64,000 bases of DNA, taken from positions 18,398 through 82,397 of the forward strand of contig JAFRHT010000116.1 in NCBI GenBank assembly GCA_017433125.1, given 5' to 3'. The DNA comes from Solobacterium sp. (GTDB taxonomy: Bacteria; Bacillota_I; Bacilli_A; Erysipelotrichales; Erysipelotrichaceae). Positions 20,683 to 36,793 of the stretch are shown here, piece after piece (the stretch's first letter is position 1; each line of letters begins with the position of its first letter). The position numbers and the translations under genes were made by a program. Below the pieces are notes generated by a model. That model saw only the letters and a program-made list of their open reading frames with translations, made no database searches and was not told the DNA's origin.

Positions 20683-22359
20683 TTATAATCCCTCAGGCAG
20701 GGACGCGACGGTCTGTTCGACAATGTCCTCTTTCCGGAAGAATGTCCGCATATGCTCTCTTCCTTCCCTGCCCATGGCTTCCCGCTGCTCTCTTGGTATG
20801 GAGAGCATTTTTTTCATGGCTTCATAGAGGGAATCCGTATCCTTCACCCGGCACAGCAGGCCGCTGACCCCGTTCACAACCGCTTCCCGGCAGCCGGGGA
20901 TATCCGTGGTAATGATCGGCCGGCCCAGGGCGGCAGCTTCCAGCAGGACATTGCTCATGCCTTCATGCCAGCTGGGCATGACAACGCAGTCTGACATTTC
21001 ATAGATCGGCCGCGGATCAGTCACGAAACCATAATCATTCACAATCCCCAGTGTCTTGAGGCTTTCCACCTGCTCCTTGAAATCATCTTCATAGAAGCCG
21101 GCCAGATCCAGCACGAACGGCACGTTCTCGCTGTGCAGGCGGCGGGCTGCTTCAAACAGTTCACCGCAGCCTTTTTCTATCATGAAACGGCCGACATAGA
21201 GGAACCGGAATACATCGTTGTCCGGATAATCTTTGTAATCAAAATAAGTGAGATTGATGCCGGCGCCGTTCAGGACAACTTCCTTCCGCGGATCAACAAT
21301 GCCTTTCTCAGCGAAGAGCATGGCATTATCCCCGTTCTCAAACAGCACCCGGTAGGCACGTCGCAGCGCCGTCCGGTACATGACCGTCACAAGGCTTGCC
21401 AGCACCGGTTTCTTGAACGCCGTGCCCAGTCCCTGCACCATGGCCACATACGGGATGTTCATCCGGCCGGCCAGATATCCGGCATAGATATTCGGTTTGA
21501 TGGAATAGGTAATCACCAGGTCCGGCGCTTCTTCCTTCAGCTGTCTTCTGTAATTCCGGTACAGGGCATAATCCTTTATGGGATTGATTCCCCGGCGGTC
21601 CAGTTCGGTATTGATGCACTTGAGACCCATGGCCTGGAAATCGTCTTCATGGCCGACAAACGGCATGGACAGAACAACTTCATGTTCTTCCATCAGTTTT
21701 TTGATCAGATCCAGCCGGAACCGGTACAGCATGTAGGAATGGTTCGTAATCAGCAGGATCTTTTTACGTTCCCGCTTGGCGCCTTCATGGATGCCCTTCT
21801 GGGTAAATACAGCCCCGAACGTACCGAAGAAACACTTGAGGTCCATCGGGAATGAAATATGTTCCGTGTAATAGCCATCCAGGGCTGCCTTGTCGGCAAT
21901 GGCGAGTTCATCCCGGCCGTTGATCTGGGCCCAGCCGGTCAGCCCCGGCAGGATATCGTTGGCACCGTACTTATCCCTTTCCGCAATCAGGTCTTCCTGA
22001 TTGTACAGGGCAGGCCGCGGACCTACGATGCTCATGTCGCCTTTCAGGATGTTGATCAGCTGCGGCAGTTCATCCAGACTGGTTTTCCGCAGGAACCGGC
22101 CGGCTTTGGTTATAAACCTCTCCGGATCTGCCAGCAGGTGCGTCGGCATGTCTTTCGGTGTATCGGTATACATCGTACGGAACTTCAGGATATCGAACTC
22201 TGTTTTATGAATGCCGACACGGCGCTGCCGGAAAAAAACCGGGCCCGTACTGTCCAGTTTGATCCAGATCATCAGAATCACAAAAAGGGGCAGCAAAACC
22301 AGCAGCCCTATGAGAGACAATACGAAATCAATCAATCGTTTTACTGCGTGTCGGTACAT
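20683..22359 (-). CDS. Fusion protein: small monotopic phosphoglycosyl transferase (bacterial sugar transferase, PglC/WbaP-C type, aa 1-~195) plus GT4 glycosyltransferase (aa ~200-558)
   Basis: N-terminus: [72 protein letters not shown]-terminus: [16 protein letters not shown] ... [33 protein letters not shown]. Confidence 0.85.
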
Positions 22360-24371: not shown

Positions 24372-25541
24372 TCAGTGTTTATTATCCCGGCGGTAATGCA
24401 GGAACAGGATCAGCCAGCCGGCTATCGTCAGCAAAACCCCATAGCCGCTGAACATGCCGGCATACCCGTACGACCCGACAAAGAAGGAACCGATGACCGG
24501 GGCTATGGCATTGCCGATGTTCTGGCCGATCTGGATGGTTGATGTGGCCACGCCGGTCCGGCTGCGGTCCAGATGCCGGATGACATCCGCCTGCAGGGAC
24601 GGGGTGCCGGCCCCCTGGCCGACGGCGATGAGGACAGCCGCCGCAATGACCATGACCAGTGTATGGGAAAAGCCGATCATGGCTGTGCCGATGGCGGTGA
24701 ACAGGACGGCCGGGGCAACGATGACATAGACACCCTTCTTATCCAGCAGTTTGCCGACCAGCGGCCGCAGGAAGACCATGCAGGCTGAATAAACGGTAAA
24801 ATACAGGGCAATGCTGGTGATGTTCCGCTCTTCCCCCATGATGGCCAGCAACGTCGAAATCAAGCCGCTGCCGGCCGCAAACAGTGCCGCCAGGATCATG
24901 AAGCCGGTGAACTCCACCGCCATCAGGCTGTCCATCGTGATCTTTCCGGAAACTGCGCCGGAAGGTTTCCGTCCCGGCAGGAATGTGATGACCGCGGCAC
25001 AGAGAAAGACAGACACGGCCGCGGCGGCAAACACCAGCGGGTAACCGCCGATATCCACCAGTTTCAGCCCCAGCGCCGGCCCGATGGCCTGGGCCAGGAT
25101 GGTTGCCAGGGCAGCATAGCCAAGCCCCTCGCCCATTTGCTTCTCCGGGATGAAATCCGTGGAATACGCGACGGCTGTCACGTTATTGATTGAAAAGAAG
25201 ACCCCGACCAGGAGCCGCAGGACAATCAGTGCCGGAATGCTCCTGATGAACGCATGCATGGCCAGCACAGCACCGTAGCATACGGACGACAGCTGCAGGA
25301 TGCGCTTGCGGCTGACCCGGTCCGACAGCACGCCGGCAAACGGGCAGACAAACAGTGATGCCAGCGACATCAGCCCGGCAATCGTGGAGGCCAGGGTCAG
25401 GTCCGGATTCAGGCTGAGTGAAAATTTGGCCACCAGCGGGTACGTCAGAAAAGCGGCTGCGTACGAAAGAAATGTAAACAGGATCACCATGATAAACTTC
25501 GGTGTCCATATTGTTTCTTTTCCAGTTCCGCTCATGGCCAT
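24372..25541 (-). CDS. MFS transporter
   Basis: 389 aa, about 12 hydrophobic segments. GVLSDRVSRKRIL is the loop 2-3 MFS motif. Confidence 0.8.
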   Translation of the reverse strand: MAMSGTGKETIWTPKFIMVILFTFLSYAAAFLTYPLVAKFSLSLNPDLTLASTIAGLMSLASLFVCPFAGVLSDRVSRKRILQLSSVCYGAVLAMHAFIRSIPALIVLRLLVGVFFSINNVTAVAYSTDFIPEKQMGEGLGYAALATILAQAIGPALGLKLVDIGGYPLVFAAAAVSVFLCAAVITFLPGRKPSGAVSGKITMDSLMAVEFTGFMILAALFAAGSGLISTLLAIMGEERNITSIALYFTVYSACMVFLRPLVGKLLDKKGVYVIVAPAVLFTAIGTAMIGFSHTLVMVIAAAVLIAVGQGAGTPSLQADVIRHLDRSRTGVATSTIQIGQNIGNAIAPVIGSFFVGSYGYAGMFSGYGVLLTIAGWLILFLHYRRDNKH

Positions 25542-25622
25542 ACCCTCCGTATTTTATCTACTATACCACGAAACATACAATCTGCCTGTATCCCCCTGTG
25601 CGGACAGGTTATAATAGCGTTA

Positions 25623-28019
25623 ATGAGCAAGAAGGTTAACCTGAAGAAAATCAATCAGAACAACGCCCGTAAACAGCAGGCCCTGCAGAAACTTCAGCCC
25701 GGCAGCCCGAAGAAAACCGTTGTCAAAAAGGTTCCGGTCAGGGAGCTGACGGTTCCCCAGCTGATCAAGCACGCGGATGAAGGCAATATTGCGTGCATGC
25801 GGGAGCTATATGAAATCTACAAAAAGGAGTATGAGGCCACGCACAGCCAGGCAGCTCTGGACAATTATGCCAGATATCTGCAGATGGCCGCGGAAGCCGG
25901 TGATGCACTTTCACAGTACAATCTTTCCGTTGCTTACCAGGAAGGGAAAAGACTGAAAAAGGATACGGAGAAGTCCATGTACTGGATGTCCCGGTGTGCC
26001 GAAAGCTCCCCGGTGACAGGTCATTTCTGGCTGGGAAAATTCTACCGGCAGGGATCACCGGTTCCGGCTGACAGGCAGGAAGCAGTCAGGCATCTGGAAG
26101 CCGCCGTGGCCGCAAAGCCGAACGGAAAACGGGAAGAAGACCTGAAGGCGTGGGCAGCCTTCGACCTTTCCGGCCTGTATATGATGAACGGCGCAAACGA
26201 AAAAGCCCGTCAATTGATGCACCAGTCTGCGGAAGGCGGCTATGAACAGGCAGCGGCAGTTCTGCCGTTGTTTGACCTGCTTACAGAACAGCCCGATTCC
26301 GGTCTGGGAAGACTATCTGTTCTGTTTATGGGCGATGATATTCCTGTGTCGGAGATGTTCCGGACTGTTTTTGACATATACCGGGCCATGTCTGCCGCAT
26401 TTAAAAAAGTGGGCATCTCTTTCTGGGAACTCTGGAAAGCTGTGAAATATGTCAAAACCGGCAGATATATGGAATTATATGATCTGGTTTACAAAGTCAA
26501 CAGCCAGATGACAGCCGGCGCGGACAGAAAGTACGGGGCTAATTATCTCGTTCAGGGCAGCACGGATGTTGTCTCCGTCATCAACAGGACGCTGCGGTCA
26601 CTCCCGGCCGCAGATCCTTCCCTCCGAAATGAGATCAGGACTATCAATGACTTCATGGACGGGTCTGTGCCAATCTTCAATACAGCCGAAGCACTTATTA
26701 TGACGGAAGATGAAATCAGCCGTGACCCGGAACATTTCATCCGTCTTCTGAAAAAGGCCGCGGATGCCGGGGAAGGCTATGGCGCCCTCATGCTGGGCCA
26801 GGCGTACATGTACGGTGATCATGTGCAGGCCGACCAGGCACTGGCAGTGAAATACCTGCAGACAGCCGCAGCACGTAACATCCCGGATGCCCTTGCCTAT
26901 CTGGCGCATCAGTACTATTTCGGCCTCGGCTTACCAGGTGATGCGCGCAGAGCCAGGAAGCTGCTGAGTGAGGCGGATATTTACTACGATGCGGAAATAT
27001 GCGAGGAGATCGAAGACGGCATCATGGCAGCTTGCCGGGGCAGGATCCCGAAGGATGCGCTGAAACCGTTCTGGTTCCTGCACGAAAAGAAAATCCGCCG
27101 GGATGCCCTGCGTGATACGGTCGGCAGGCAGGCAGCGCAGGAAGCGTCTGATCCTGTCATTAATGAAAAACTCGAGAAAATCATGGCCCGCCTGGACCGG
27201 CTGACGGTTGTATCGCTCGACACGAATATGCGCACCCGTTCGCTTGAGGCAGGCATTGCGGAAATATACCGGTTCATGACCACTGATCTCGCCCGCCAGC
27301 TTCAGGAAGAAAAAATGCGGCTCCGCTCCCAGGCATACGACGAGGAAAAGGAAGAGCGATTCTTTGCACGGATGGACGCCTGGATCAGCAGCCGGGTGAA
27401 ATCGGCGGACAGCCTGGCCGGCGAGCAGACCCGTCTGCTGGAAGAGCTGTTCGGGGATGTCTGGAACCTGCTTCTGCCGGAATCCCGTGCTTCCCTGGTT
27501 TCTGCCCATGTACTGTATGAATCCTGCCGGGAAATCCATGCGGAAGGGTTTGATTTCAGCGGCATCTGCATCTCCGCCACATCTGCCCTGGAAGGGGAAA
27601 TCAGAAGACGGCTGTACAATGACTTCATGACCTGGATGCAGGCTGCCGGCATTGAGGAAACAGAGATTGAATATGTCCGCGGCAAGGTAACAAAATCATT
27701 CGGCTTCACGCTTGGCTGTGTTCCCTACGTCTTCGGCGTCAAAGGTTCTTCGCAGACCGCCAAAGAGCGCGTACAGGATCAGTTCTTCCCCTACATGAAA
27801 GCCATTCTGGCCGATCATGACTGTCCGGATGTTTATGCCCTGTTCTGCGTCCCTGCCCCTGATGCCTTTGTGCAGCGGAGTGAAGATATCCGCGAGCAGT
27901 ACCGGAATAAAGCTGCCCATGTGGAAAACATGACGCGGGAAGAAGCGCAGGCGTGCATGCTGGCAGTGACCGATCTCCTGCTGGATTTCTATCATCTGCT
28001 GGACCCACAGGCTCTCTGA
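25623..28019 (+). CDS. Sel1-repeat protein with coiled-coil and a C-terminal HEPN-like (R-N-K-A-A-H) domain; function unknown
   Basis: 798 aa. Sel1-like repeats (AEAGDALSQYNLSVAYQEGKRLKKDTEKSMYWMSRCAES; AADAGEGYGALMLGQAYMYGDHVQADQALAVKYLQTAAARN...). The C-terminus contains IREQYRNKAAHVENMTREEAQ (RNKAAH = 27903..27920). The coding strand is supported by these motifs; the 202-aa antisense ORF is in codon phase with it. Confidence 0.6.
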   Translation: MSKKVNLKKINQNNARKQQALQKLQPGSPKKTVVKKVPVRELTVPQLIKHADEGNIACMRELYEIYKKEYEATHSQAALDNYARYLQMAAEAGDALSQYNLSVAYQEGKRLKKDTEKSMYWMSRCAESSPVTGHFWLGKFYRQGSPVPADRQEAVRHLEAAVAAKPNGKREEDLKAWAAFDLSGLYMMNGANEKARQLMHQSAEGGYEQAAAVLPLFDLLTEQPDSGLGRLSVLFMGDDIPVSEMFRTVFDIYRAMSAAFKKVGISFWELWKAVKYVKTGRYMELYDLVYKVNSQMTAGADRKYGANYLVQGSTDVVSVINRTLRSLPAADPSLRNEIRTINDFMDGSVPIFNTAEALIMTEDEISRDPEHFIRLLKKAADAGEGYGALMLGQAYMYGDHVQADQALAVKYLQTAAARNIPDALAYLAHQYYFGLGLPGDARRARKLLSEADIYYDAEICEEIEDGIMAACRGRIPKDALKPFWFLHEKKIRRDALRDTVGRQAAQEASDPVINEKLEKIMARLDRLTVVSLDTNMRTRSLEAGIAEIYRFMTTDLARQLQEEKMRLRSQAYDEEKEERFFARMDAWISSRVKSADSLAGEQTRLLEELFGDVWNLLLPESRASLVSAHVLYESCREIHAEGFDFSGICISATSALEGEIRRRLYNDFMTWMQAAGIEETEIEYVRGKVTKSFGFTLGCVPYVFGVKGSSQTAKERVQDQFFPYMKAILADHDCPDVYALFCVPAPDAFVQRSEDIREQYRNKAAHVENMTREEAQACMLAVTDLLLDFYHLLDPQAL

Positions 28020-28042
28020 TGCATATATCCCCGGAAAACATG

Positions 28043-28073
28043 AAAGGCACACCTTTTGCAGGTGTGCCTTTTG
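28043..28073. terminator. Bidirectional intrinsic terminator between the Sel1 gene and rpoC
   Basis: Stem GGCACACCT (28046-28054) / AGGTGTGCC (28060-28068), flanked by AAA on the left and TTTT on the right. Confidence 0.6.
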
Positions 28074-28077
28074 ACTG

Positions 28078-31000
28078 TTATTCGGCTGTTGTTTCTTCCG
28101 GGATTTCCACCGGGGCATCGCCTTCAGCCATGGCCCCGCCGGTTACTTCATCCGGCAGTTTGATGGCTGTTGCCTCCGCGAGGGCTGCTGCCTTCTCACG
28201 GCGGATTTCACGGATTTCATCCGCTCTCGCCACAATTCTCCTGGTTGTCTCACGGTCGTAGGCTGTCCGTCCTGTACCGGCCGGGATCAGCTTGCCGATG
28301 ATGACATTTTCCTTCAGGCCGGACAGTGTATCCTTCTTGCTCTTGACAGCTGCTTCGGTCAGGACACGGGTTGTCTCCTGGAAGGATGCAGCGGACAGGA
28401 ACGAGTCGGTTTCAACTGCCGACTTGGAGATACCGAGCAGGATCGGCGCGTACTTGGCCGGGGTCTTGTCCTCGTCGAACATCTGGCTGTTGACTTCCTC
28501 CATGCGGCGGAGCGACAGCGACTGTCCGACCGAGTATCCCGTTTCACCGCCGTCGGTAATGACGACCTTCTTCAGCATCTGCTTGATCATGACTTCCAGA
28601 TGCTTGTCGGAGATATCAATGGACTGGCTGGAGTACACCTTCTTGACTTCCTTCAGGATGTACTCTTCAACCGCCCTGACACCGGCAACGTCCAGCAGTT
28701 CCTTCGGCGCGATCTGGCCTTCGGTCAGCGGTTCACCGGCCTTGACCGTCACCCCGACTCTGACATCGGAACGGACGGCCTGGGTCAGGTCGCACTTATG
28801 CTCGATTGTATCCTTGGCATTGGCCACGGTCACAATCTGGCCGGCGTGGTTGTCCTGTTCATGGATGTCAACGACTTCACCGTCAATCTTGGCGATGACA
28901 GCGACCCGCTTCGGGGTTCTGGCTTCGAAAAGTTCTTCAACTCTCGGCAGACCCTGGGTGATGTCACCGGACTGGTTGGCAACACCGCCGGTATGGAAGT
29001 TACGCATGGTCAGCTGGGTACCCGGCTCACCAATCGCCTGGGCGGCCATGACACCGATGGCTTCGCCGGTTTCAACCGGGTTGCCGGTAGCCATGTTGCG
29101 GCCGTAGCACTTGCAGCAGATACCATGGGTGGATTCGCAGGTGAAGACGTTGCGGATGTATGCCTGCTTGACGCCGGCATCCACAACCTTCTTGGCCAGG
29201 TCATCGGAGATGTAGCTGTTCTCGTCCACGATGATTTCGCCTGTTTCCGGATCCGTGATGGCCTGCTGTGTATAGCGGCCGACAATCCGGTCAAAGAACT
29301 TCTCGATCATGGAGTTGTTGCGTTCATCAACGATATCCTCAACGAGGTAACCCTTCTCTGTGCCGCAGTCTTCTTCCGTGATGATGACTTCCTGGGCAAC
29401 GTCAACCAGACGTCTGGTCAGATAGCCGGATTCAGCTGTCTTCAGCGCGGTATCGGTCAGGCCCTTGCGGACACCATGGGTGGAAATGAAGAACTCGGAC
29501 ACGCTCATGCCTTCACGGAAGCAGGAGTAGATCGGGACTTCGATGATGGACGGCTGGTATTCCTTACGCGACTTCGACTGGGTCGGACGGGCCATCAGGC
29601 CGCGCATGCCGGCCAGCTGCGTGAAGTGGTTCTTGTTGCCGCGCGCGCCGGATACCGCCATCATGTTGATCGGGTTCATTCTCGGCAGCGAGGTCATCAG
29701 GGTATCACCAACAGTATTCTTGACCTTGTCCCACAGATCGGAGAACGCGCGTTCCCATTCCTGCGGGGTCAGAAGACCTCTGTCCCTCAGGGCATTCAGC
29801 TGGTCAGCCTTTTCCTTCCCCTCGTTGACATATTTATCCTTGTCCGGGGCGACAGAAATATCGCTCAGGGCAACGGTCATGCCGGCGGTGGTGGAGTACA
29901 GATAGCCCATGTCCTTAAGGGAGTCGAGGATATCACTGGTACCGTTGATGTGATACTTGTCGAACACGGCAGCGATCAGGTTTCCGAGATCCTTCTTCTT
30001 GAATTCCGGAGTGATCGGCCGGCCGGCGATCTCTTTCTTCAGATCGGTGCCGAGCGGGACGAATTCGCTGTCCGGTGTAGCCTTGAGCGATTCCGGGCTG
30101 GCATCGTTGAGATACGGGAAGTCAGACGGGAAAACATTATTGAAGATGATCTTGCCGACGGATGTCAGCAGGTAGCACTCATTCTGCTTTTCCGTGAAGC
30201 CGTCCTTATGCAGGGACCTGGCCGGCAGGGCGATTCTTGTGTGCAGATGCACGGCGCCCAGCTGGTAAGCCATCATGACTTCATCGACATCCCTGTAGAG
30301 ATGGCCTTCGTTGTCACCGTAGCGGCGCCACTTGGCAGCTTCGACCGGCAGGCCGAGGCGTTCGAGGGCGTCTGCCTTCTTATAGAACTCTTCGGCTGTC
30401 TCTTCCATGTTCAGATAGAAGTTGCCCAGCACGAGGTCCTGGCCCGGAGTAACGATCGGTTTGCCGTCCTTCGGGCCGAGAATGTTGTTGGCACCGAGCA
30501 TCAGGACTTCCGTCTCGGCTCTGGCCATTTCACTCAGCGGCAGATGGACAGCCATCTGGTCACCGTCGAAGTCGGCGTTGAACGCCGGACATACGAGCGG
30601 ATGGACACGGATTGCATGACCGTCAACCAGTTTCGGGAAGAAGGACTGGATACCGAGTCTGTGCAGGGTCGGGGCACGGTTCAGGAAGACCGGATGGCCT
30701 TCAATGACCTGTTCGACAACATCCCAGACGCGGGCATCCTGCTTGTCAATCAGCTTTTCGGCTGTCTTCGGGTTGGACGCAATCTGCTGGTTGACCAGTT
30801 CGTTGATGACGAACGGCTTGTACAGCTGAATGGCCATTTCCTTCGGCAGACCGCACTGCCACATCTTCAGGTCCGGTCCGATGGCAATAACGGAACGGCC
30901 GGAGAAGTCGACACGCTTGCCGAGCAGGTTCTGACGGAAGCGGCCCTGCTTGCCCTTAAGGGCATGGGACAGCGACTTCAGCGCCCTGCCGCCGGCACCG

Positions 31001-31917
31001 GTAATCGGCTTGGAACGGCGTCCGTTGTCAATCAGCGCATCGACTGCTTCCTGCAGCATACGTTTTTCGTTCTGGACGATGATCGCCGGTGTACCCAGTT
31101 CAAGCAGCTTCTTCAGACGGTTGTTCCGGGTGATGACACGGCGGTACAGATCGTTCAGGTCACTGGTGGCGAAACGGCCTCCGTCCAGCTGCAGCATCGG
31201 CCTGAGATCCGGCGGGATGACCGGCAGGACAGTCAGGACCATCCATTCCGGACGATTGTCGGAATCCCGGAAGGCATCAATGGTTTCCAGGCGCTTGATC
31301 AGTTTCTTGCGCTTGTCACCGTTGGCCTTTTCCAGTTCGGCCATGATTTCGTTGTGTTCCTTGTCGAGATCCACCTGTTCCAGCAGGGTCTTGACAGCTT
31401 CGGCACCGGTGGCGGCGGAGAAGCTTCCCGGCCCGTAGATGGCGGTGTTCTCACGGAACTCACGTTCGGAAAGAATCTGCTTGTAGGTCAGCTTTGTATC
31501 GCCCGGATCCGTGACGATCCAGGAAACGAAGTAAACAACTTCTTCCAGGTGTTTCGGCGGAACATTGAGCAGCAGGCTCATGCGGCTCGGAATGCCGCGC
31601 AGGTACCAGATGTGCGCAACCGGGGCAGCCAGTTCGATATGGCCCATGCGTTCCCGGCGGACACTGGACTTGGTGATTTCAACGCCGCAGCGGTCACAGA
31701 TCACGCCCTGATAGCGGATCTTCTTGTACTTTCCGCAGGCGCACTCCCAGTCCTTGGTCGGACCGAAAATGCGTTCGCAGAACAGACCGTCTTTCTCCGG
31801 CTTCTGGGAGCGGTAGTTAATGGTTTCCGGCTTCTTGACTTCGCCGTAGGACCATTCGTGAATACGTTCAGGTGATGCCAGACCGACGCGAATTGCATCA
31901 AAATCGTTAATATTCAT
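28078..31917 (-). CDS. rpoC: DNA-directed RNA polymerase subunit beta'
   Basis: 1279 aa. Zn-finger [22 protein letters not shown], catalytic [12 protein letters not shown], trigger-loop and bridge-helix regions are recognisable. Confidence 0.98.
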
Positions 31918-31932: not shown

Positions 31933-34900
31933 TTATTCTTCACCGGCGGAATCGAGATCATCGAAGCCGACAACGGCCGCAGCCGGAATGTCGTCTTCGT
32001 CCAGTCCTTCACGGATGGTCAGATCACCGGTTTCTTCCGCATCATTGACATAGGTCTGCCGGTTGAGATCCATGGTGGTCTCTTCCTTGAGTTCATCCTG
32101 GGCCATCTGCTTGAGATCCATTTCGGTTCCGTCCGCATTCAGCATCCGGACATCGACCGCCAGGGCCTGCAGTTCATGCACCAGCACCCGGAAGGATTCC
32201 GGAATACCGGCAGCCGGCAGGTCTCTGCCCTTGACGATGGCTTCGTATGTCTTGGTACGGCCCATGATGTCATCGGACTTGACGGTCAGGATTTCCTGCA
32301 GCGTATTGGCAGCGCCGTACGCTTCCAGGGCCCAGACTTCCATTTCACCGAATCTCTGGCCGCCGTTCTGCGCCTTGCCGCCTAGCGGCTGCTGGGTAAC
32401 CAGGGAGTACGGACCGGTAGCCCGCGCATGCAGCTTGTCATCAACCATGTGCGCCAGCTTGATCATGTACATGACGCCGACCGCGATCCGTTCATCGTAC
32501 GGTTCACCGGTCATGCCGTCGGTCAGCAGATACTTGCCGTCCATGGAAGTATTCGCTTCCTGCATGATGTTTCTGAGGTCTTCGTTGGAAACACCGTCAA
32601 AGACCGGGGTTGCGAACTTGACGCCGAGGCTTCTCGCCGCCATGCCGAGATGGACTTCCAGCACCTGTCCGATGTTCATACGGGAAGGGACACCGAACGG
32701 GTTCAGCATGATGTCAATCGGCGTGCCGTCCTGCATGTACGGCATATCCTCGATCGGCATGATCTTGGAAATGACACCCTTGTTGCCGTGACGGCCGGCC
32801 ATCTTGTCACCCTCGGAAATCTTCCGCTTCTGGACAACGTAGACCTTGACGACCTCATTGACGCCCGGCGGCAGTTCGTGGTCATCCTTGCGCTTGAAGA
32901 CACGCACGGAATGCACGATGCCGGCACCGCCGTGCGGTACTTTCAGGGAATTGTCGCGGACTTCGCGGCTCTTCTCACCGAAGATCGCCAGCAGCAGCTT
33001 TTCTTCCGGTGTGATTTCACTCTGGCCCTTCGGGGTTACCTTGCCGACCAGGATATCGCCTTCCTTGACTTCCGCACCGACCATGACGATGCCGCGCCCA
33101 TCCAGGTTGCGGCAGGCACTCTCGGCAACGTTCGGAATATCACGGGTGATTTCTTCCGGACCGAGCTTGGTTTCCCGGCATTCCAGGTCATATTCTTCAA
33201 TATGAATGGATGTATAGACGTCTTCGCGCACCATGCGTTCGGACATGATGATCGCGTCTTCGTAGTTGTAGCCGTGCCATGTCATGAAGGCAATCAGCAC
33301 GTTCTGGCCAAGCGCCAGTTCGCCGTCCTGCATCGCCGGACCATCAGCCAGGATATCACCGCGCTCCACCCGTTCGCCGTCAAAGACAATCGGTCTCTGG
33401 TTCAGGCAGGTGGAAGCGTTGGAACGGCGGAACTTGGTCAGTTCATAGACATGTTCATGACCGTCATCCTCCGTGACGATGACCTTGTCGGCATCGACGT
33501 AGGTGACAATACCCGGCGCCATCGCGACGCAGGCAGCACCCGAGTCACGGGCAATGCGGTGTTCCATGCCCGTTCCGACAAACGGGCTGTGCGGATTCAG
33601 CAGCGGTACGGCCTGACGCTGCATGTTCGCGCCCATCAGGGCCCGGGTGCAGTCGTCGTTTTCCAGGAACGGAACGCAGGCTGTCGCTACCGAGACAATC
33701 TGCCGCGGCGAAACGTCGGCGTAGTCAATGGTGGCTTTTTCCGCCATGACGGTATCACCGGCGATTCTGGCAACGACCCGGTCATTGACCAGCCGGCCGT
33801 CCTGAATCTCGTTGGCCTGGGCGATGACATGATCGTTTTCTTCATCCGCGCTCATGTATACGACATCATCCGTTACCACACCGTCTTCGTTGACCTTCCG
33901 GTACGGGGTCTGGATGAAGCCGTATTCATTGACTCTGGCATAGGTTGTCAGATAGGAAATCAGACCGATGTTCGGGCCTTCCGGTGTTTCAATCGGACAG
34001 ATCCGGCCATAGTGGGAGTTGTGAATATCACGCACTTCGAAGCCGGCCCGCTCTCTGGTCAGACCGCCCGGACCAAGCGCGGAAATACGGCGCTTGTTGG
34101 ACAGTTCCGCCAGCGGGTTCTGCTGGTCCATGAACTGGGACAGCTGGGAACTGGAGAAGAACTCCTTGATCGCGGCTGTCAGCGGCCGGATATTGGTCAG
34201 CTGCTTCGGGGTCAGGCCGGAAGCGTCCGCAATGGACATCCGTTCCTTGACGACCCGTTCCATCCGGGACAGACCGATCCGGAACTGGTTCTGAATCAGT
34301 TCCCCGACCGTCCGGATGCGGCGGTTGCCGAGCATATCGATATCATCAGCACTGCCGACACCGTCCAGCATCGTCAGTTCATAGTTGTACAGCGCGTACA
34401 TGTCCGGCATGGTGATGGTGTGCTTGCTGTTGAGCGGGTCCACACCGATCAGCTTGACGGGATGACCGTCATCCGTCAGGATTTCGATCTGCTGCACGCA
34501 GGCACCGATCAGCCACATGGTGACCTCTTCCCGGGCCATGACATGCGCCTGCACATTTTCTTTCTGCTCCGTGGACAGGATCATCTTGTGATCGCTCTCC
34601 GGATCATATGTGCAGTCAGCGATGTCTTCACCGTTGGCCAGGATACGGCCGACAGTGTAGAGCCGGCTGCCGTAGTCCATGACCGCGGCGGCGTTGTCGT
34701 TTGTCAGCTTGACTTCCTGGGCGATGATCCCGGCATAGACCGTTACCTTCTCGAATTCGGCGGCGATCGCCTTCACATCGGCAGCGGTGATGACCGTGCC
34801 CCTGCGCATGCTGACCTTTTTGCCTTCCAGATCCGTGGCCAGGATACGGCCGATCAGGCCGCCCGTCCATGTTGTCTCCAGTTCGGCGGTCACCGGGTGG

Positions 34901-36087
34901 GAGAATTCATGAATATACGGAAGGGCCCGGCAGTTGATGCCCTTGGCCAGTTCCGGCTTCAGCGCATTCCGCTCGGTCTTACCGATCATCCTGTTCTTCT
35001 TGAAGATAACCTTGCCTTCGGCCCCGATAAGGTCATTCCTGAGGACATGGCCTTCCATACGGTCGAGGACATTGAGCTTCTTGAGCACCTTGTAACGGCC
35101 GGCCATGGTCAGGTCATACCGGCGGTAGTCAAAGAACTTGGCATCCATCAGGTTCATGGCGCCTTCGATGGTGGCAATTTCGTCTGCCCGCTGGTTCTCA
35201 TAGACACTCAGCAGCGCTTCATTGGTTGTCTTTGTCTTGTCGGCAGCCAGGGTGTTGCGGACTTCCTCGTAGTTGCCGAAGACAGAAGTATACAGAAGCA
35301 TATAGTCGTTCAGGAATTCCCGTTCCTCACCCGGAACGATCACATCCGGATACAGTTCAAACTGCAGGGCCTTCAGGAACTTCTGCATGCCGGTGGTGTC
35401 AAAGGCATCCTCGCCCCGTTCCAGATTCAGGGACATGCCGATCGCCTTGAACAGGATGGTGCTGAGCACCTTCCGGCGGCGATCAATCGACACATTCATG
35501 ATCCGGCCGAGCGCGGCCTTCTTGTCATCCGACATGAATTCCAGCCAGGTGCCCCGGGACGGAATCAGTTCACATGTATAGGTATCGTGGCCGGTCCGTT
35601 CTTCGGAAACAATATCAAAGTAGGCACCCGGAGATCTGACGATCTGGGATACAATGACACGTTCTGCACCGTTGATAATGAATGTCCCGGTCGGGGTCAT
35701 CAGCGGGAAATCTCCAAGGAAGACGTCTTCCCACTTGGTCATGACTTCACCGGTGTCCTGATCCACTATCTCCAGTTCCATCTTGGCTTTCAGCGGGGCA
35801 CTGTAGTTCGCCTCACGGTACTTGCACTCACTGATGGAGAATTTCGGTTCTCCAAATTCATAATCCAGAAACTTCAGTTTGATGTTTCCGGCGTAGTTGT
35901 AAATGGGATAGATATCGTTGAATACCTCCCGGATGCCTTCCCTTACAAACCACTCAAAGGACGCTGTCTGAATCTCGACGAGATCCGGCAGGTCCAGTCC
36001 GGCACTGACTTTGGAGTAATCACGCCGGACAGCTTTGTTGCCATAATGCACAACGTGGTATGTCTGTTTATTTTCCATGTACGCCAT
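31933..36087 (-). CDS. rpoB: DNA-directed RNA polymerase subunit beta
   Basis: Conserved blocks [62 protein letters not shown]. The start is probably ATG 36087 (MAYMENK) or 36078 (MENK; GAAAGG lies 9 nt upstream), not the ORF-track start at 36159. Confidence 0.97.
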
Positions 36088-36190
36088 CCTTTCGCCTGCA
36101 TCGCTGAAACGCCGAAAAGGGGTATTAACCCTGTTTTCAATTTTTCGGCTTTTTTGCAACGTAATATTTTATCATCAAATGGTCAATTCG

Positions 36191-36793
36191 TCAATTTGTA
36201 CGGGTACAGCGGAGAATCCAGTATCCTTTGCTCCGGTCTATGACTTCACAGTTTCCGTAGATCTCCCTGAGTCTTGCGGCTGCGCTCTCCGCGCCCTGCC
36301 GGCGGCGGATGACAGCCAGGAAGATGCCTCCGGGATTCAGATGATCGTGTGCAGCCTCCAGGAGCGGATAGAGGATCTTTTTTCCCACCCGTATTGGCGG
36401 ATTGGTCACAACAGCGTCAAACATCGCGCTGATGTGCTCAAAACCGTTGGATTCCACCACTTCCACCGGGCACCTGTTGCGGACAGCGTTTTCCGCCGTC
36501 AGTTCCAGTGCCCGCGGATTCACGTCACCGGCCGTCACGGTGCAGTCGGGAAATGTGCGCTTGAGCACAATGCCCACCACCCCGTAGCCGCAGCCAAGAT
36601 CCAGAATGCTCCCGCGGAGTTCCTGCCTGACTGCCGATTTCAGCAGCAGTTCGGTGCCGTAATCGACGCCGTCCTTGCTGAAAACACCGATATCCGTAAT
36701 GAAAGTGTAAATATCGCCCGAAAACCGGAAAGAGTGTTCCTTCCGGTTCGAAGGAAGGCTGCGGTTGTCTTCAAAATACTGATTCTGCGCCAT
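36191..36793 (-). CDS. Class I SAM-dependent methyltransferase (RsmC/YbxB-like small-domain rRNA methyltransferase)
   Basis: 200 aa. ILDLGCGYGVVGI (motif I), VTNPPI (motif IV NPPx). It sits between rplL and rpoB, as ybxB does in Bacillus. Confidence 0.8.
   Translation of the reverse strand: MAQNQYFEDNRSLPSNRKEHSFRFSGDIYTFITDIGVFSKDGVDYGTELLLKSAVRQELRGSILDLGCGYGVVGIVLKRTFPDCTVTAGDVNPRALELTAENAVRNRCPVEVVESNGFEHISAMFDAVVTNPPIRVGKKILYPLLEAAHDHLNPGGIFLAVIRRRQGAESAAARLREIYGNCEVIDRSKGYWILRCTRTN

Follow-up and report, generated by a model that had tools for sequence, protein, structure and literature searches.

The window analysed here is a 64,000-nt stretch of a contig (JAFRHT010000116.1) from a rumen Solobacterium sp., Solobacterium being a genus of Erysipelotrichaceae, and the gene under study occupies positions 25623..28019 of its plus strand. 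The open reading frame (ORF) starts with ATG and comprises 798 codons and a stop codon, and its product is identical to MBQ6533132.1, which carries the NCBI label 'sel1 repeat family protein [Solobacterium sp.]'. Behind its Sel1 repeats the 798-aa protein has a long helical stalk and a HEPN-like C-terminal module, and this pair of elements recurs in relatives whose N-terminal regions are of quite different kinds. Upstream of the gene is a divergent MFS gene (24372..25541 (-); MFS_1, E=6e-48), and downstream is a convergent 1279-aa ORF (28078..31917 (-)), followed by a 1408-aa ORF. These two are presumed to be rpoC and rpoB, judging by their size, their order and a syntenic ORF that is 98.7% identical in a Solobacterium metagenome-assembled genome (MAG). 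The hairpin that follows the gene (Table 1) scores as a terminator on both strands, with 14 pairs on the plus strand and 12 on the minus strand, and since the stretch from the stop codon to this hairpin contains no ORF, the gene is monocistronic. An annotation made beforehand from the sequence alone (the first-pass annotation) had described a monocistronic gene flanked by a divergent MFS gene and by the 3' end of rpoC, sharing a bidirectional terminator with the latter and lacking an antitoxin-like ORF next to it. Its coordinates for the ORF were exact, and the arrangement that it described was found again at each of these points.

Scanned against Pfam at full length, the protein matches Sel1 (PF08238) alone, in four stretches and with 70.9 bits against a cut-off of 30.7, which places it among the Sel1-like repeat (SLR) proteins. 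In a segment-wise Pfam scan, the N-terminal tail, the middle region and the linker with the stalk matched nothing. In the full-length AlphaFold model both Sel1 blocks and aa 600-798 are predicted with confidence, the per-residue confidence score (pLDDT) falls below 50 over aa 223-347, and an uninterrupted helix of 76 residues precedes an all-helical C-terminal module. The architecture read from the translation in the first-pass annotation (a basic tail, two Sel1 blocks separated by a non-repeat region, a charged and coiled-coil-like segment, and a helix-rich end) is reproduced directly by these results, with the borders redrawn as in Table 1. The first 45 residues have a net charge of +11, compared with a family mean of -1.5. 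A 37%-identical homologue (P0003) likewise starts with a Lys-rich tail, and Sel1 block 2 is strongly conserved there. The stalk helix is a putative coiled-coil dimerisation element, to judge from the model, and in many homologues the stalk lies within the conserved module (matches at query positions ~45-125 of the aa 470-798 query). The protein is cytoplasmic, as neither a hydrophobic segment (maximum 19-residue Kyte-Doolittle mean 1.26) nor a transmembrane (TM) segment or signal peptide was detected. The only matches that Foldseek gave for the full-length model were Sel1/TPR proteins, among them LceB, LpnE, HcpC and SEL1L/Hrd3 (E ~7e-10), and none was informative on the C-terminus.

Table 1. 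Features of the 798-aa gene and of the hairpin that follows it (positions in the window; aa, residues of the protein).
Feature	Position	Strand	Description or basis
Whole gene	25623..28019	+	798-aa cytoplasmic Sel1-repeat/HEPN-like protein
Lys/Arg-rich N-terminal tail, aa 1-40	25623..25742	+	Charge; no Pfam match
Sel1 block 1, aa 41-215	25743..26267	+	Sel1 E=4.7e-14, 2 scoring repeats; pLDDT 85-97
Variable middle, aa 216-349	26268..26669	+	No recognisable repeat; no Pfam match
Sel1 block 2, aa 350-470	26670..27032	+	Sel1 E=1.1e-11, 2 scoring repeats; pLDDT 79-95
Linker and long helical stalk, aa 471-598	27033..27416	+	Single predicted helix aa 493-568 (27099..27326)
HEPN-like C-terminal module, aa 599-798	27417..28016	+	AF2 model, family, sub-threshold profiles
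E657-G-E-I-R661, Ex3[K/R] in helix 2	27591..27605	+	Conservation; predicted auxiliary active-site acidic residue
R761-N-K-A-A-H766, Rx4H at the end of helix 3	27903..27920	+	Conservation, model; predicted catalytic site
Intrinsic-terminator-like hairpin, bidirectional	28041..28073	.	Shared with the convergent rpoC-like gene

The HEPN core is a four-helix up-and-down arrangement of two alpha-hairpins (PMC3710099). Its hallmarks are an Rx4-6H motif with a polar residue (N, D or H) after the Arg, closing helix 3 into the loop before helix 4, and an acidic residue of helix 2, typically in the form Ex3[KR]; an insert between helices 2 and 3 is frequent (PMC3710099). The first-pass annotation had pointed out that RNKAAH fits this R-x4-6-H pattern, and the Arg is indeed followed by a polar residue, Asn. 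The AlphaFold2 (AF2) model of the module on its own (pLDDT 89.1, predicted TM-score (pTM) 0.82) is all-alpha with the helices in the HEPN order: helix 1 spans aa 619-635, helix 2 aa 646-674, helix 3 aa 749-765 and helix 4 aa 772-791. In the numbering of this model, the helix at 186-202 closes in RNKAAH (198-203) and is followed by a loop and a helix at 209-229, a layout that is alike in the full-length model. The acidic residue E657, with R661 four positions on, sits in the helix at 83-111, and an insert of ~75 residues (aa 675-748) separates helices 2 and 3. We regard it as very likely that the module belongs to the HEPN superfamily.

Profile comparisons point in the same direction at scores below the cut-offs. 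The native C-terminus matches HEPN_Swt1 with E=0.076 and 13.7 bits, against a gathering cut-off of 27.5 bits. Among 28 members of the family the sub-gathering matches fall almost entirely on HEPN families, namely HEPN_Swt1 (four), Ymh (two), Csm6_HEPN (one) and RnlA-toxin_DBD (one). The full family consensus matches HEPN_RiboL-PSP (E=0.011, positions 24-178 of 191). After the helix 2-3 insert is trimmed from it, the consensus matches HEPN_Swt1 with E=5.3e-5 and 23.9 bits (gathering 27.5) over profile positions 15-102 of 115, and the RnlA DBD profile with E=0.022, the low end of a range of 0.022-0.3. Since the trimmed consensus is an artificial sequence, its E-value is supportive and not proof. 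In Foldseek searches against the PDB, a probability above 0.5 was reached only by LsoA (0.75) and RnlA (0.57-0.72), with query TM-scores (TMq) of 0.35-0.38 and no E-value below 0.6; against BFVD the top match was an 'RNaseLS-like protein' (probability 0.96, TMq 0.42, E=0.25). A comparison of the module with PDB sequences, both as a single sequence and as a profile of 28, gave only coiled-coil and designed-helix noise, and a PHROGs search gave nothing useful.

The first-pass annotation had likened the C-terminus to DUF4145/Abi-type HEPN domains. DUF4145 (PF13643) was rejected as the family of the module: it was matched neither by the module of the window nor by the 28 members nor by the consensus, in searches where the HMMER filters drop most matches above E ~0.1. 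None of the nearest profiles, which are Swt1-like, RiboL-PSP, Ymh and the RnlA DBD, reaches its gathering score. The wider claim, that the end of the protein is HEPN-like, is upheld, in that the region behaves as a HEPN-superfamily domain, and none of the findings that had been named in advance as counting against it (another fold, unconserved R761 and H766, or homologues uniformly linked to housekeeping genes) was made. The module belongs to a clade, very likely of HEPN type, without an above-threshold model among the Pfam, NCBIfam and PADLOC models searched.

The motif alone would be a poor guide. Bare R-x4-6-H sequences occur three times in the 798-aa protein against 2.8 expected from its composition, which is not significant, and it is the conservation among relatives, not the single sequence, that lifts RNKAAH beyond chance. 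An exhaustive phmmer search with aa 470-798, clustered at 50% identity, returned a module family of 455 clusters at E <=1e-3 and 182 at E <=1e-10. An RN..xH sequence is present near the C-terminus in 210 of the 225 module-bearing homologues, so that R761 and H766, whose conservation had been proposed as a check, are kept almost universally; the exceptions are mostly truncated proteins or ones with an extra C-terminal domain, and no more than four have true substitutions. When 28 sequences are aligned, at a mean column identity of 31%, the residues S646, A655, E657, Y760, R761, N762, H766 and C778 are invariant and E659 nearly so, the family consensus around E657 being ALExELKR. In the homologue P0160 (L019 8652..11236) the Sel1 part (454 aa) and the module part (411 aa) are encoded by separate, overlapping ORFs, and Tyr takes the place of the His in the motif (RNKAAY). 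Although it belongs to a 90%-identity cluster of 20 sequences, this copy has probably been inactivated or is decaying.

The relatives differ widely in what precedes the module. It stands at the extreme C-terminus in ~88% of 149 proteins, behind N-terminal regions of 0 to ~1200 aa. Among 59 full-length members scanned, Sel1 was found in 28, LRR_5 in nine, guanylate-kinase in five and LRR_8 in three, besides several TPR variants, including TPR-S; elsewhere in the family receiver domains or a zinc ribbon precede the module, or no N-terminal domain is recognised. The recurring plan is a variable input, a helical stalk and a constant HEPN output, and as relatives swap the N-terminus and keep the helix and the HEPN module, the sensor-effector logic suggested in the first-pass annotation gains support. 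That annotation could not place the combination of Sel1 and HEPN in any described family. With Sel1 in 28 of the 59 members, about half, this combination is common within the family and not unique to the 798-aa protein, and Sel1-HEPN proteins were already listed by Anantharaman et al. in 2013. Close full-length relatives are few, consisting of P0003, in which both conserved motifs are kept, and the protein's own 90%-identity cluster. The latter has 23 members, all of them from MAGs or metagenome assemblies, and the named ones are all Solobacterium sp.

Some other architectures deserve mention. The guanylate-kinase domain is fused to the stalk and HEPN module in five members of the 59-member alignment (A4; best E=8e-36), and P0020 and P0161 carry a response-regulator receiver domain; these fusions suggest that nucleotides or phosphorylation feed into the same output. 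A large subgroup of ~470-500 aa (P0163-P0221; for example P0114, L021 10001..11425) has RNxxAH at both ~aa 100 and ~aa 450. Its N-terminal domain weakly matches DUF4145 (2 of 22, best 6.4e-5) and HEPN_Swt1, and for this reason the subgroup is probably of tandem-HEPN type. Four proteins (P0057, P0059, P0061 and P0071) have an additional conserved C-terminal domain of ~90 aa after the HEPN module, with the consensus G.LRG.I.GS.VG.SLS..HL ... K..V.L.RWDENA..YNAEW and no Pfam match.

Sixteen genome loci of relatives were retrieved with a 6-sequence alignment of the family, all of them from gut or rumen Firmicutes. In many of them the genes form co-directional arrays of the kind found on conjugative or mobilisable elements: five loci encode TraG/VirD4 coupling proteins, and a Mob_Pre relaxase, a CHAP/amidase cell-wall hydrolase and large serine recombinases are also present. 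A WYL/WCX protein of ~900 aa is encoded immediately upstream in six loci, sometimes with HD and giant (>2700 aa) nSTAND/ATPase proteins, and in one locus a STAND-TPR protein is upstream. The tandem-type relatives adjoin restriction-modification genes, ArdC and a large helicase, and others lie near two AIPR genes, a methylase, SNF2 and TraG, or near serine recombinases, capsid and terminase genes and VWA/FHA/kinase genes. Small ORFs downstream of the relatives' genes are not conserved across loci. P0011, a 42%-identical Solobacterium homologue, has housekeeping neighbours, in a context unlike that of the window. The first-pass annotation had proposed asking whether homologues are enriched in defence islands. 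The relatives are often near mobile-element or defence genes; the window locus itself is not a defence island.

In three loci (L019 1..11236, L022 1..12955 and L015 3..10729) a co-directional array is conserved, comprising an nSTAND1/ATPase_2 gene (>2700 aa), a ~900-aa WYL/WCX gene, an HD gene and a Sel1-HEPN gene. The array is located on conjugative elements, and genes for ClpP, TraG/VirD4 and TerY_C come after the Sel1-HEPN gene. It may represent a multi-gene system, of which the window gene may be the only part in Solobacterium.

The chromosomal gene itself is stable in position. The order MFS gene, 798-aa gene and rpoC-like gene is kept in three independent contigs (the window, L002 and L003), and a 91%-identical locus is present in a Solobacterium MAG from dairy cattle. 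Against the orthologue in L003, the ratio of non-synonymous to synonymous differences (pN/pS) is 0.19 for the whole gene (pS 0.19) vs 0.06 for the rpoC-like gene, and the gene is therefore maintained under purifying selection. By region, pN/pS is 0.04 in the stalk, 0.10-0.19 in the Sel1 blocks, 0.18 in the HEPN module and 0.53 in the middle region, which also has the most variable sites (19%) among 10 cluster members, so that the least structured segment evolves fastest. Rapid change in the middle region would fit either a recognition surface or a relaxation of constraint.

Taken together, these observations are best read as those of a ligand-gated, dimeric, single-chain RNase, a sensor-effector acting in genetic conflict, and we consider the chances that this is right to be evenly balanced. 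The two Sel1 solenoids and the fast-evolving middle would form the input, most likely a surface that binds a protein or peptide ligand, and the 76-residue helix would be a stalk, probably pairing two protomers. R761, N762 and H766, together with E657 of helix 2, would make up a HEPN site that is completed across the dimer and cleaves RNA without a metal. At rest, the HEPN pair would be held in an inactive geometry; a ligand bound to the repeats would re-set the stalk and the HEPN dimer and so switch on RNA cleavage, leading to growth arrest or to a block of the invading element. What the analysis shows is the domain layout, the conservation of the predicted catalytic residues, the modular build of the family, the linkage of relatives to mobile elements and the purifying selection; RNase activity, pairing through the stalk, gating by a ligand and a part played by this chromosomal copy in defence or conflict are inferred.

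A number of results weigh against such a reading. No HEPN Pfam model reaches its gathering score, and no match in either Foldseek library has an E-value below 0.2, those to RNase LS (E 0.25-1.5) being non-significant. The alignment by hhalign between the module profile and the HEPN-like N-terminal domain of the tandem relatives, at 82% probability, covers just 18 motif columns. In PADLOC-DB v2 the module has no match, and the full-length protein has only Sel1-region matches to PtuA-type models. The full-length model has a pTM of 0.38, so that the packing between domains is not predicted, and gating and dimerisation are conjecture. Relatives were absent from 72,556 sequenced plasmids and from sequenced phages (tblastn), and from IMG/VR contigs, so a phage-borne origin of the subfamily is not supported. 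None of the partner or mobile-element genes of the relatives is present in the window, and the locus, which is not a defence island, sits between a polysaccharide-synthesis cluster with the MFS gene and the presumed rpoC/rpoB pair.

A broader version of the gated-RNase reading would extend it to the whole clade. The module would define a HEPN clade, abundant in gut and rumen Firmicutes, that acts as a plug-in output for many receptors: a repeat scaffold (Sel1, LRR or TPR), a receiver domain, a guanylate-kinase-like domain or a second HEPN domain would signal through a coiled-coil stalk to a gated HEPN RNase dimer, as a bacterial counterpart of RNase L. The clade is often placed in operons with nSTAND, WYL/WCX and HD genes on integrative and conjugative elements (ICEs). 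The Solobacterium copy would then have been domesticated as a stand-alone gene beside rpoBC, with an added basic tail that could target it to RNA or ribosomes. We put this forward tentatively, as a picture with the chances somewhat against it.

The first alternative is a non-immune one, a housekeeping or stress-regulatory RNase that the Sel1 repeats recruit to a cellular partner (e.g., ribosome- or RNA-polymerase-associated factors) and that tunes RNA turnover. The stable position beside the MFS and rpoC-like genes in three contigs would fit such a role, as would the lack of mobile or defence genes nearby, a base composition like that of the flanks (52-57% G+C for the 798-aa gene), the purifying selection, and the strongly basic N-terminal tail, a feature uncommon in the family and potentially able to bind nucleic acid. 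However, full-length relatives are rare and patchy (a single 90%-identity cluster besides the 37%-identical P0003), the second homologue in Solobacterium has a different setting, the wider family is often on mobile elements, and shuffling of the N-terminus is typical of conflict systems and not of core RNA metabolism. We judge this alternative unlikely.

Another possibility is that the family is cargo of ICEs or of integrative and mobilisable elements and serves the element itself, in addiction, exclusion or competition with other plasmids or ICEs, the Solobacterium copy being a stranded remnant. It draws on the Sel1-HEPN relatives that lie in arrays with TraG/VirD4, ClpP, TerY_C, a relaxase, a CHAP amidase and a serine recombinase, and on the HEPN protein Ishtar, for which such a role has been proposed and which shows that HEPN proteins can act against plasmids (bioRxiv 10.64898/2026.07.06.735840). 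No element genes are left in the window, yet the gene is under purifying selection, and the 72,556 plasmids yielded no match. This explanation seems to us somewhat less probable still.

It is also conceivable, and in our view quite improbable, that the module is a non-catalytic HEPN-like bundle engaged in binding of a ligand, nucleotide or protein or in oligomerisation, and that the protein is merely a Sel1 scaffold. All profile and fold matches are below significance, and several HEPN families lack catalysis (PMC3710099). Such domains, however, characteristically lose Rx4-6H (PMC3710099), whereas here the R, N and H and the helix-2 Glu are kept at a mean column identity of 31%, P0160, a split and probably decaying gene, being the rare exception. 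The idea of a secreted Sel1 effector or polymorphic toxin, with an RNase toxin domain at its C-terminus and an immunity protein to match, was rejected as extremely improbable: many bacterial Sel1 proteins are secreted, including the Foldseek matches LpnE, LceB and HcpC, but the 798-aa protein has no signal peptide, TM segment or recognisable secretion or trafficking domain, no ORF that could encode an immunity protein lies before the terminator, and the small downstream ORFs of the relatives are not conserved. HEPN domains do occur as toxin tips.

Of the known systems, RNase LS (RnlA/LsoA) provides the best-probability fold matches to the module model in two libraries, and weak RnlA-toxin_DBD profile matches as well. 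RnlA uses R255/E258 and R318/H323 at the interface of a canonical HEPN dimer, which its activity requires, and it switches between alternative dimers (PMC8266594), a precedent for the gating proposed here. The RnlA site is analogous to the predicted E657/R661 and R761/H766, with an acidic and a basic residue on an early helix and an RX4H motif. The 798-aa protein is not a member of RNase LS: it has Sel1 repeats and a long stalk helix in place of TBP-like N-terminal domains, it has no gene for an RnlB/Dmd-type antitoxin, and the E-values are all non-significant. With the Swt1/Abi2-like HEPN family (PF18731) the module shares RNxxxH, including the Asn after the Arg, and HEPN_Swt1 is the closest Pfam profile; it differs from PF18731 and PF13643 in scoring below the gathering cut-off of the former, in lacking any match to the latter, and in having the 75-residue helix 2-3 insert and the conserved N-terminal stalk.

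RNase L offers a parallel in outline to the mechanism proposed for the 798-aa protein. In this eukaryotic enzyme of ankyrin repeats, a pseudokinase and a KEN/HEPN domain, the repeat scaffold binds a ligand (2-5A), the protein dimerises and the C-terminal HEPN RNase is activated. The KEN domain is listed among HEPN domains and is circularly permuted (PMC3710099). No homology beyond the superfamily is implied, and RNase L differs in being eukaryotic and in its permuted KEN domain, its kinase-like dimerisation module and its small-molecule ligand. Single-protein HEPN defences include ApeA (bioRxiv 10.64898/2026.01.26.701840), Tha (PMC11087260) and DS-11, a CBS-HEPN protein (PMC13092281). ApeA, Tha and DS-11 resemble the proposed scheme in uniting a sensing part and a HEPN RNase in one polypeptide that is activated by an infection cue and has no antitoxin gene. 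Their sensing domains are of other kinds, no sequence relationship to them was detected, and the PADLOC models, including that of ApeA, do not match the 798-aa protein.

HEPN RNases fused to sensor domains are already well known, and fusions of DUF4145-like HEPN domains to Sel1 in Firmicutes were tabulated by Anantharaman et al. in 2013 (PMC3710099). The 798-aa protein resembles those examples in architecture, a likeness that does not establish that they are of the same family. What is new is a sizeable clade without an above-threshold model among those searched, with a conserved stalk, a large helix 2-3 insert, interchangeable inputs and recurrence on conjugative elements, and also a stand-alone chromosomal copy beside the presumed rpoBC in Solobacterium. 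If the module is an active, ligand-gated RNase, the clade would give Clostridia and Erysipelotrichia, taxa in which defence has seldom been studied by experiment, a large group of single-chain effectors of immunity or conflict that is missing from current catalogues. The swapping of inputs on a constant stalk and HEPN output makes the family a tractable system for learning how repeat sensors gate a HEPN dimer, and its repeated occurrence on conjugative elements, with nSTAND, WYL/WCX and HD genes alongside, suggests that a multi-gene system may exist. As regards annotation, PADLOC, Pfam and NCBIfam show only 'Sel1 repeat', and the name 'sel1 repeat family protein' hides a probable nuclease.

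The remaining observations concern the surroundings of the gene. An 81-bp intergenic stretch (25542..25622) is common to the 798-aa gene and the divergent MFS gene. It contains a perfect TATAAT at 25610..25615, ending 7 nt before the ATG of the 798-aa gene, and a direct reading of the sequence between the two revealed no evident Shine-Dalgarno sequence; a promoter scan of 25542..25622 found no full sigma-70 match on the plus strand. On this layout the mRNA of the 798-aa gene may be leaderless. The N-terminus is kept in P0003, and the start codon at 25623 is thereby supported.

Further upstream, a long polysaccharide-synthesis cluster on the minus strand takes up approximately the first 24 kb of the window, with LytR-CpsA-Psr and CpsB genes and a sugar transferase/GT4 fusion. 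The fusion gene (20683..22359 (-)) encodes 558 aa, with a Bac_transf priming sugar transferase domain (aa 7-185) joined to a GT4 glycosyltransferase. On the other side of the 798-aa gene, two long antisense ORFs, 28600..31875 (+) (1091 aa) and 32428..36243 (+) (1271 aa), lie opposite the rpoC- and rpoB-like genes, and are most likely stop-codon-poor shadow ORFs of highly biased sense genes and not genes in their own right.

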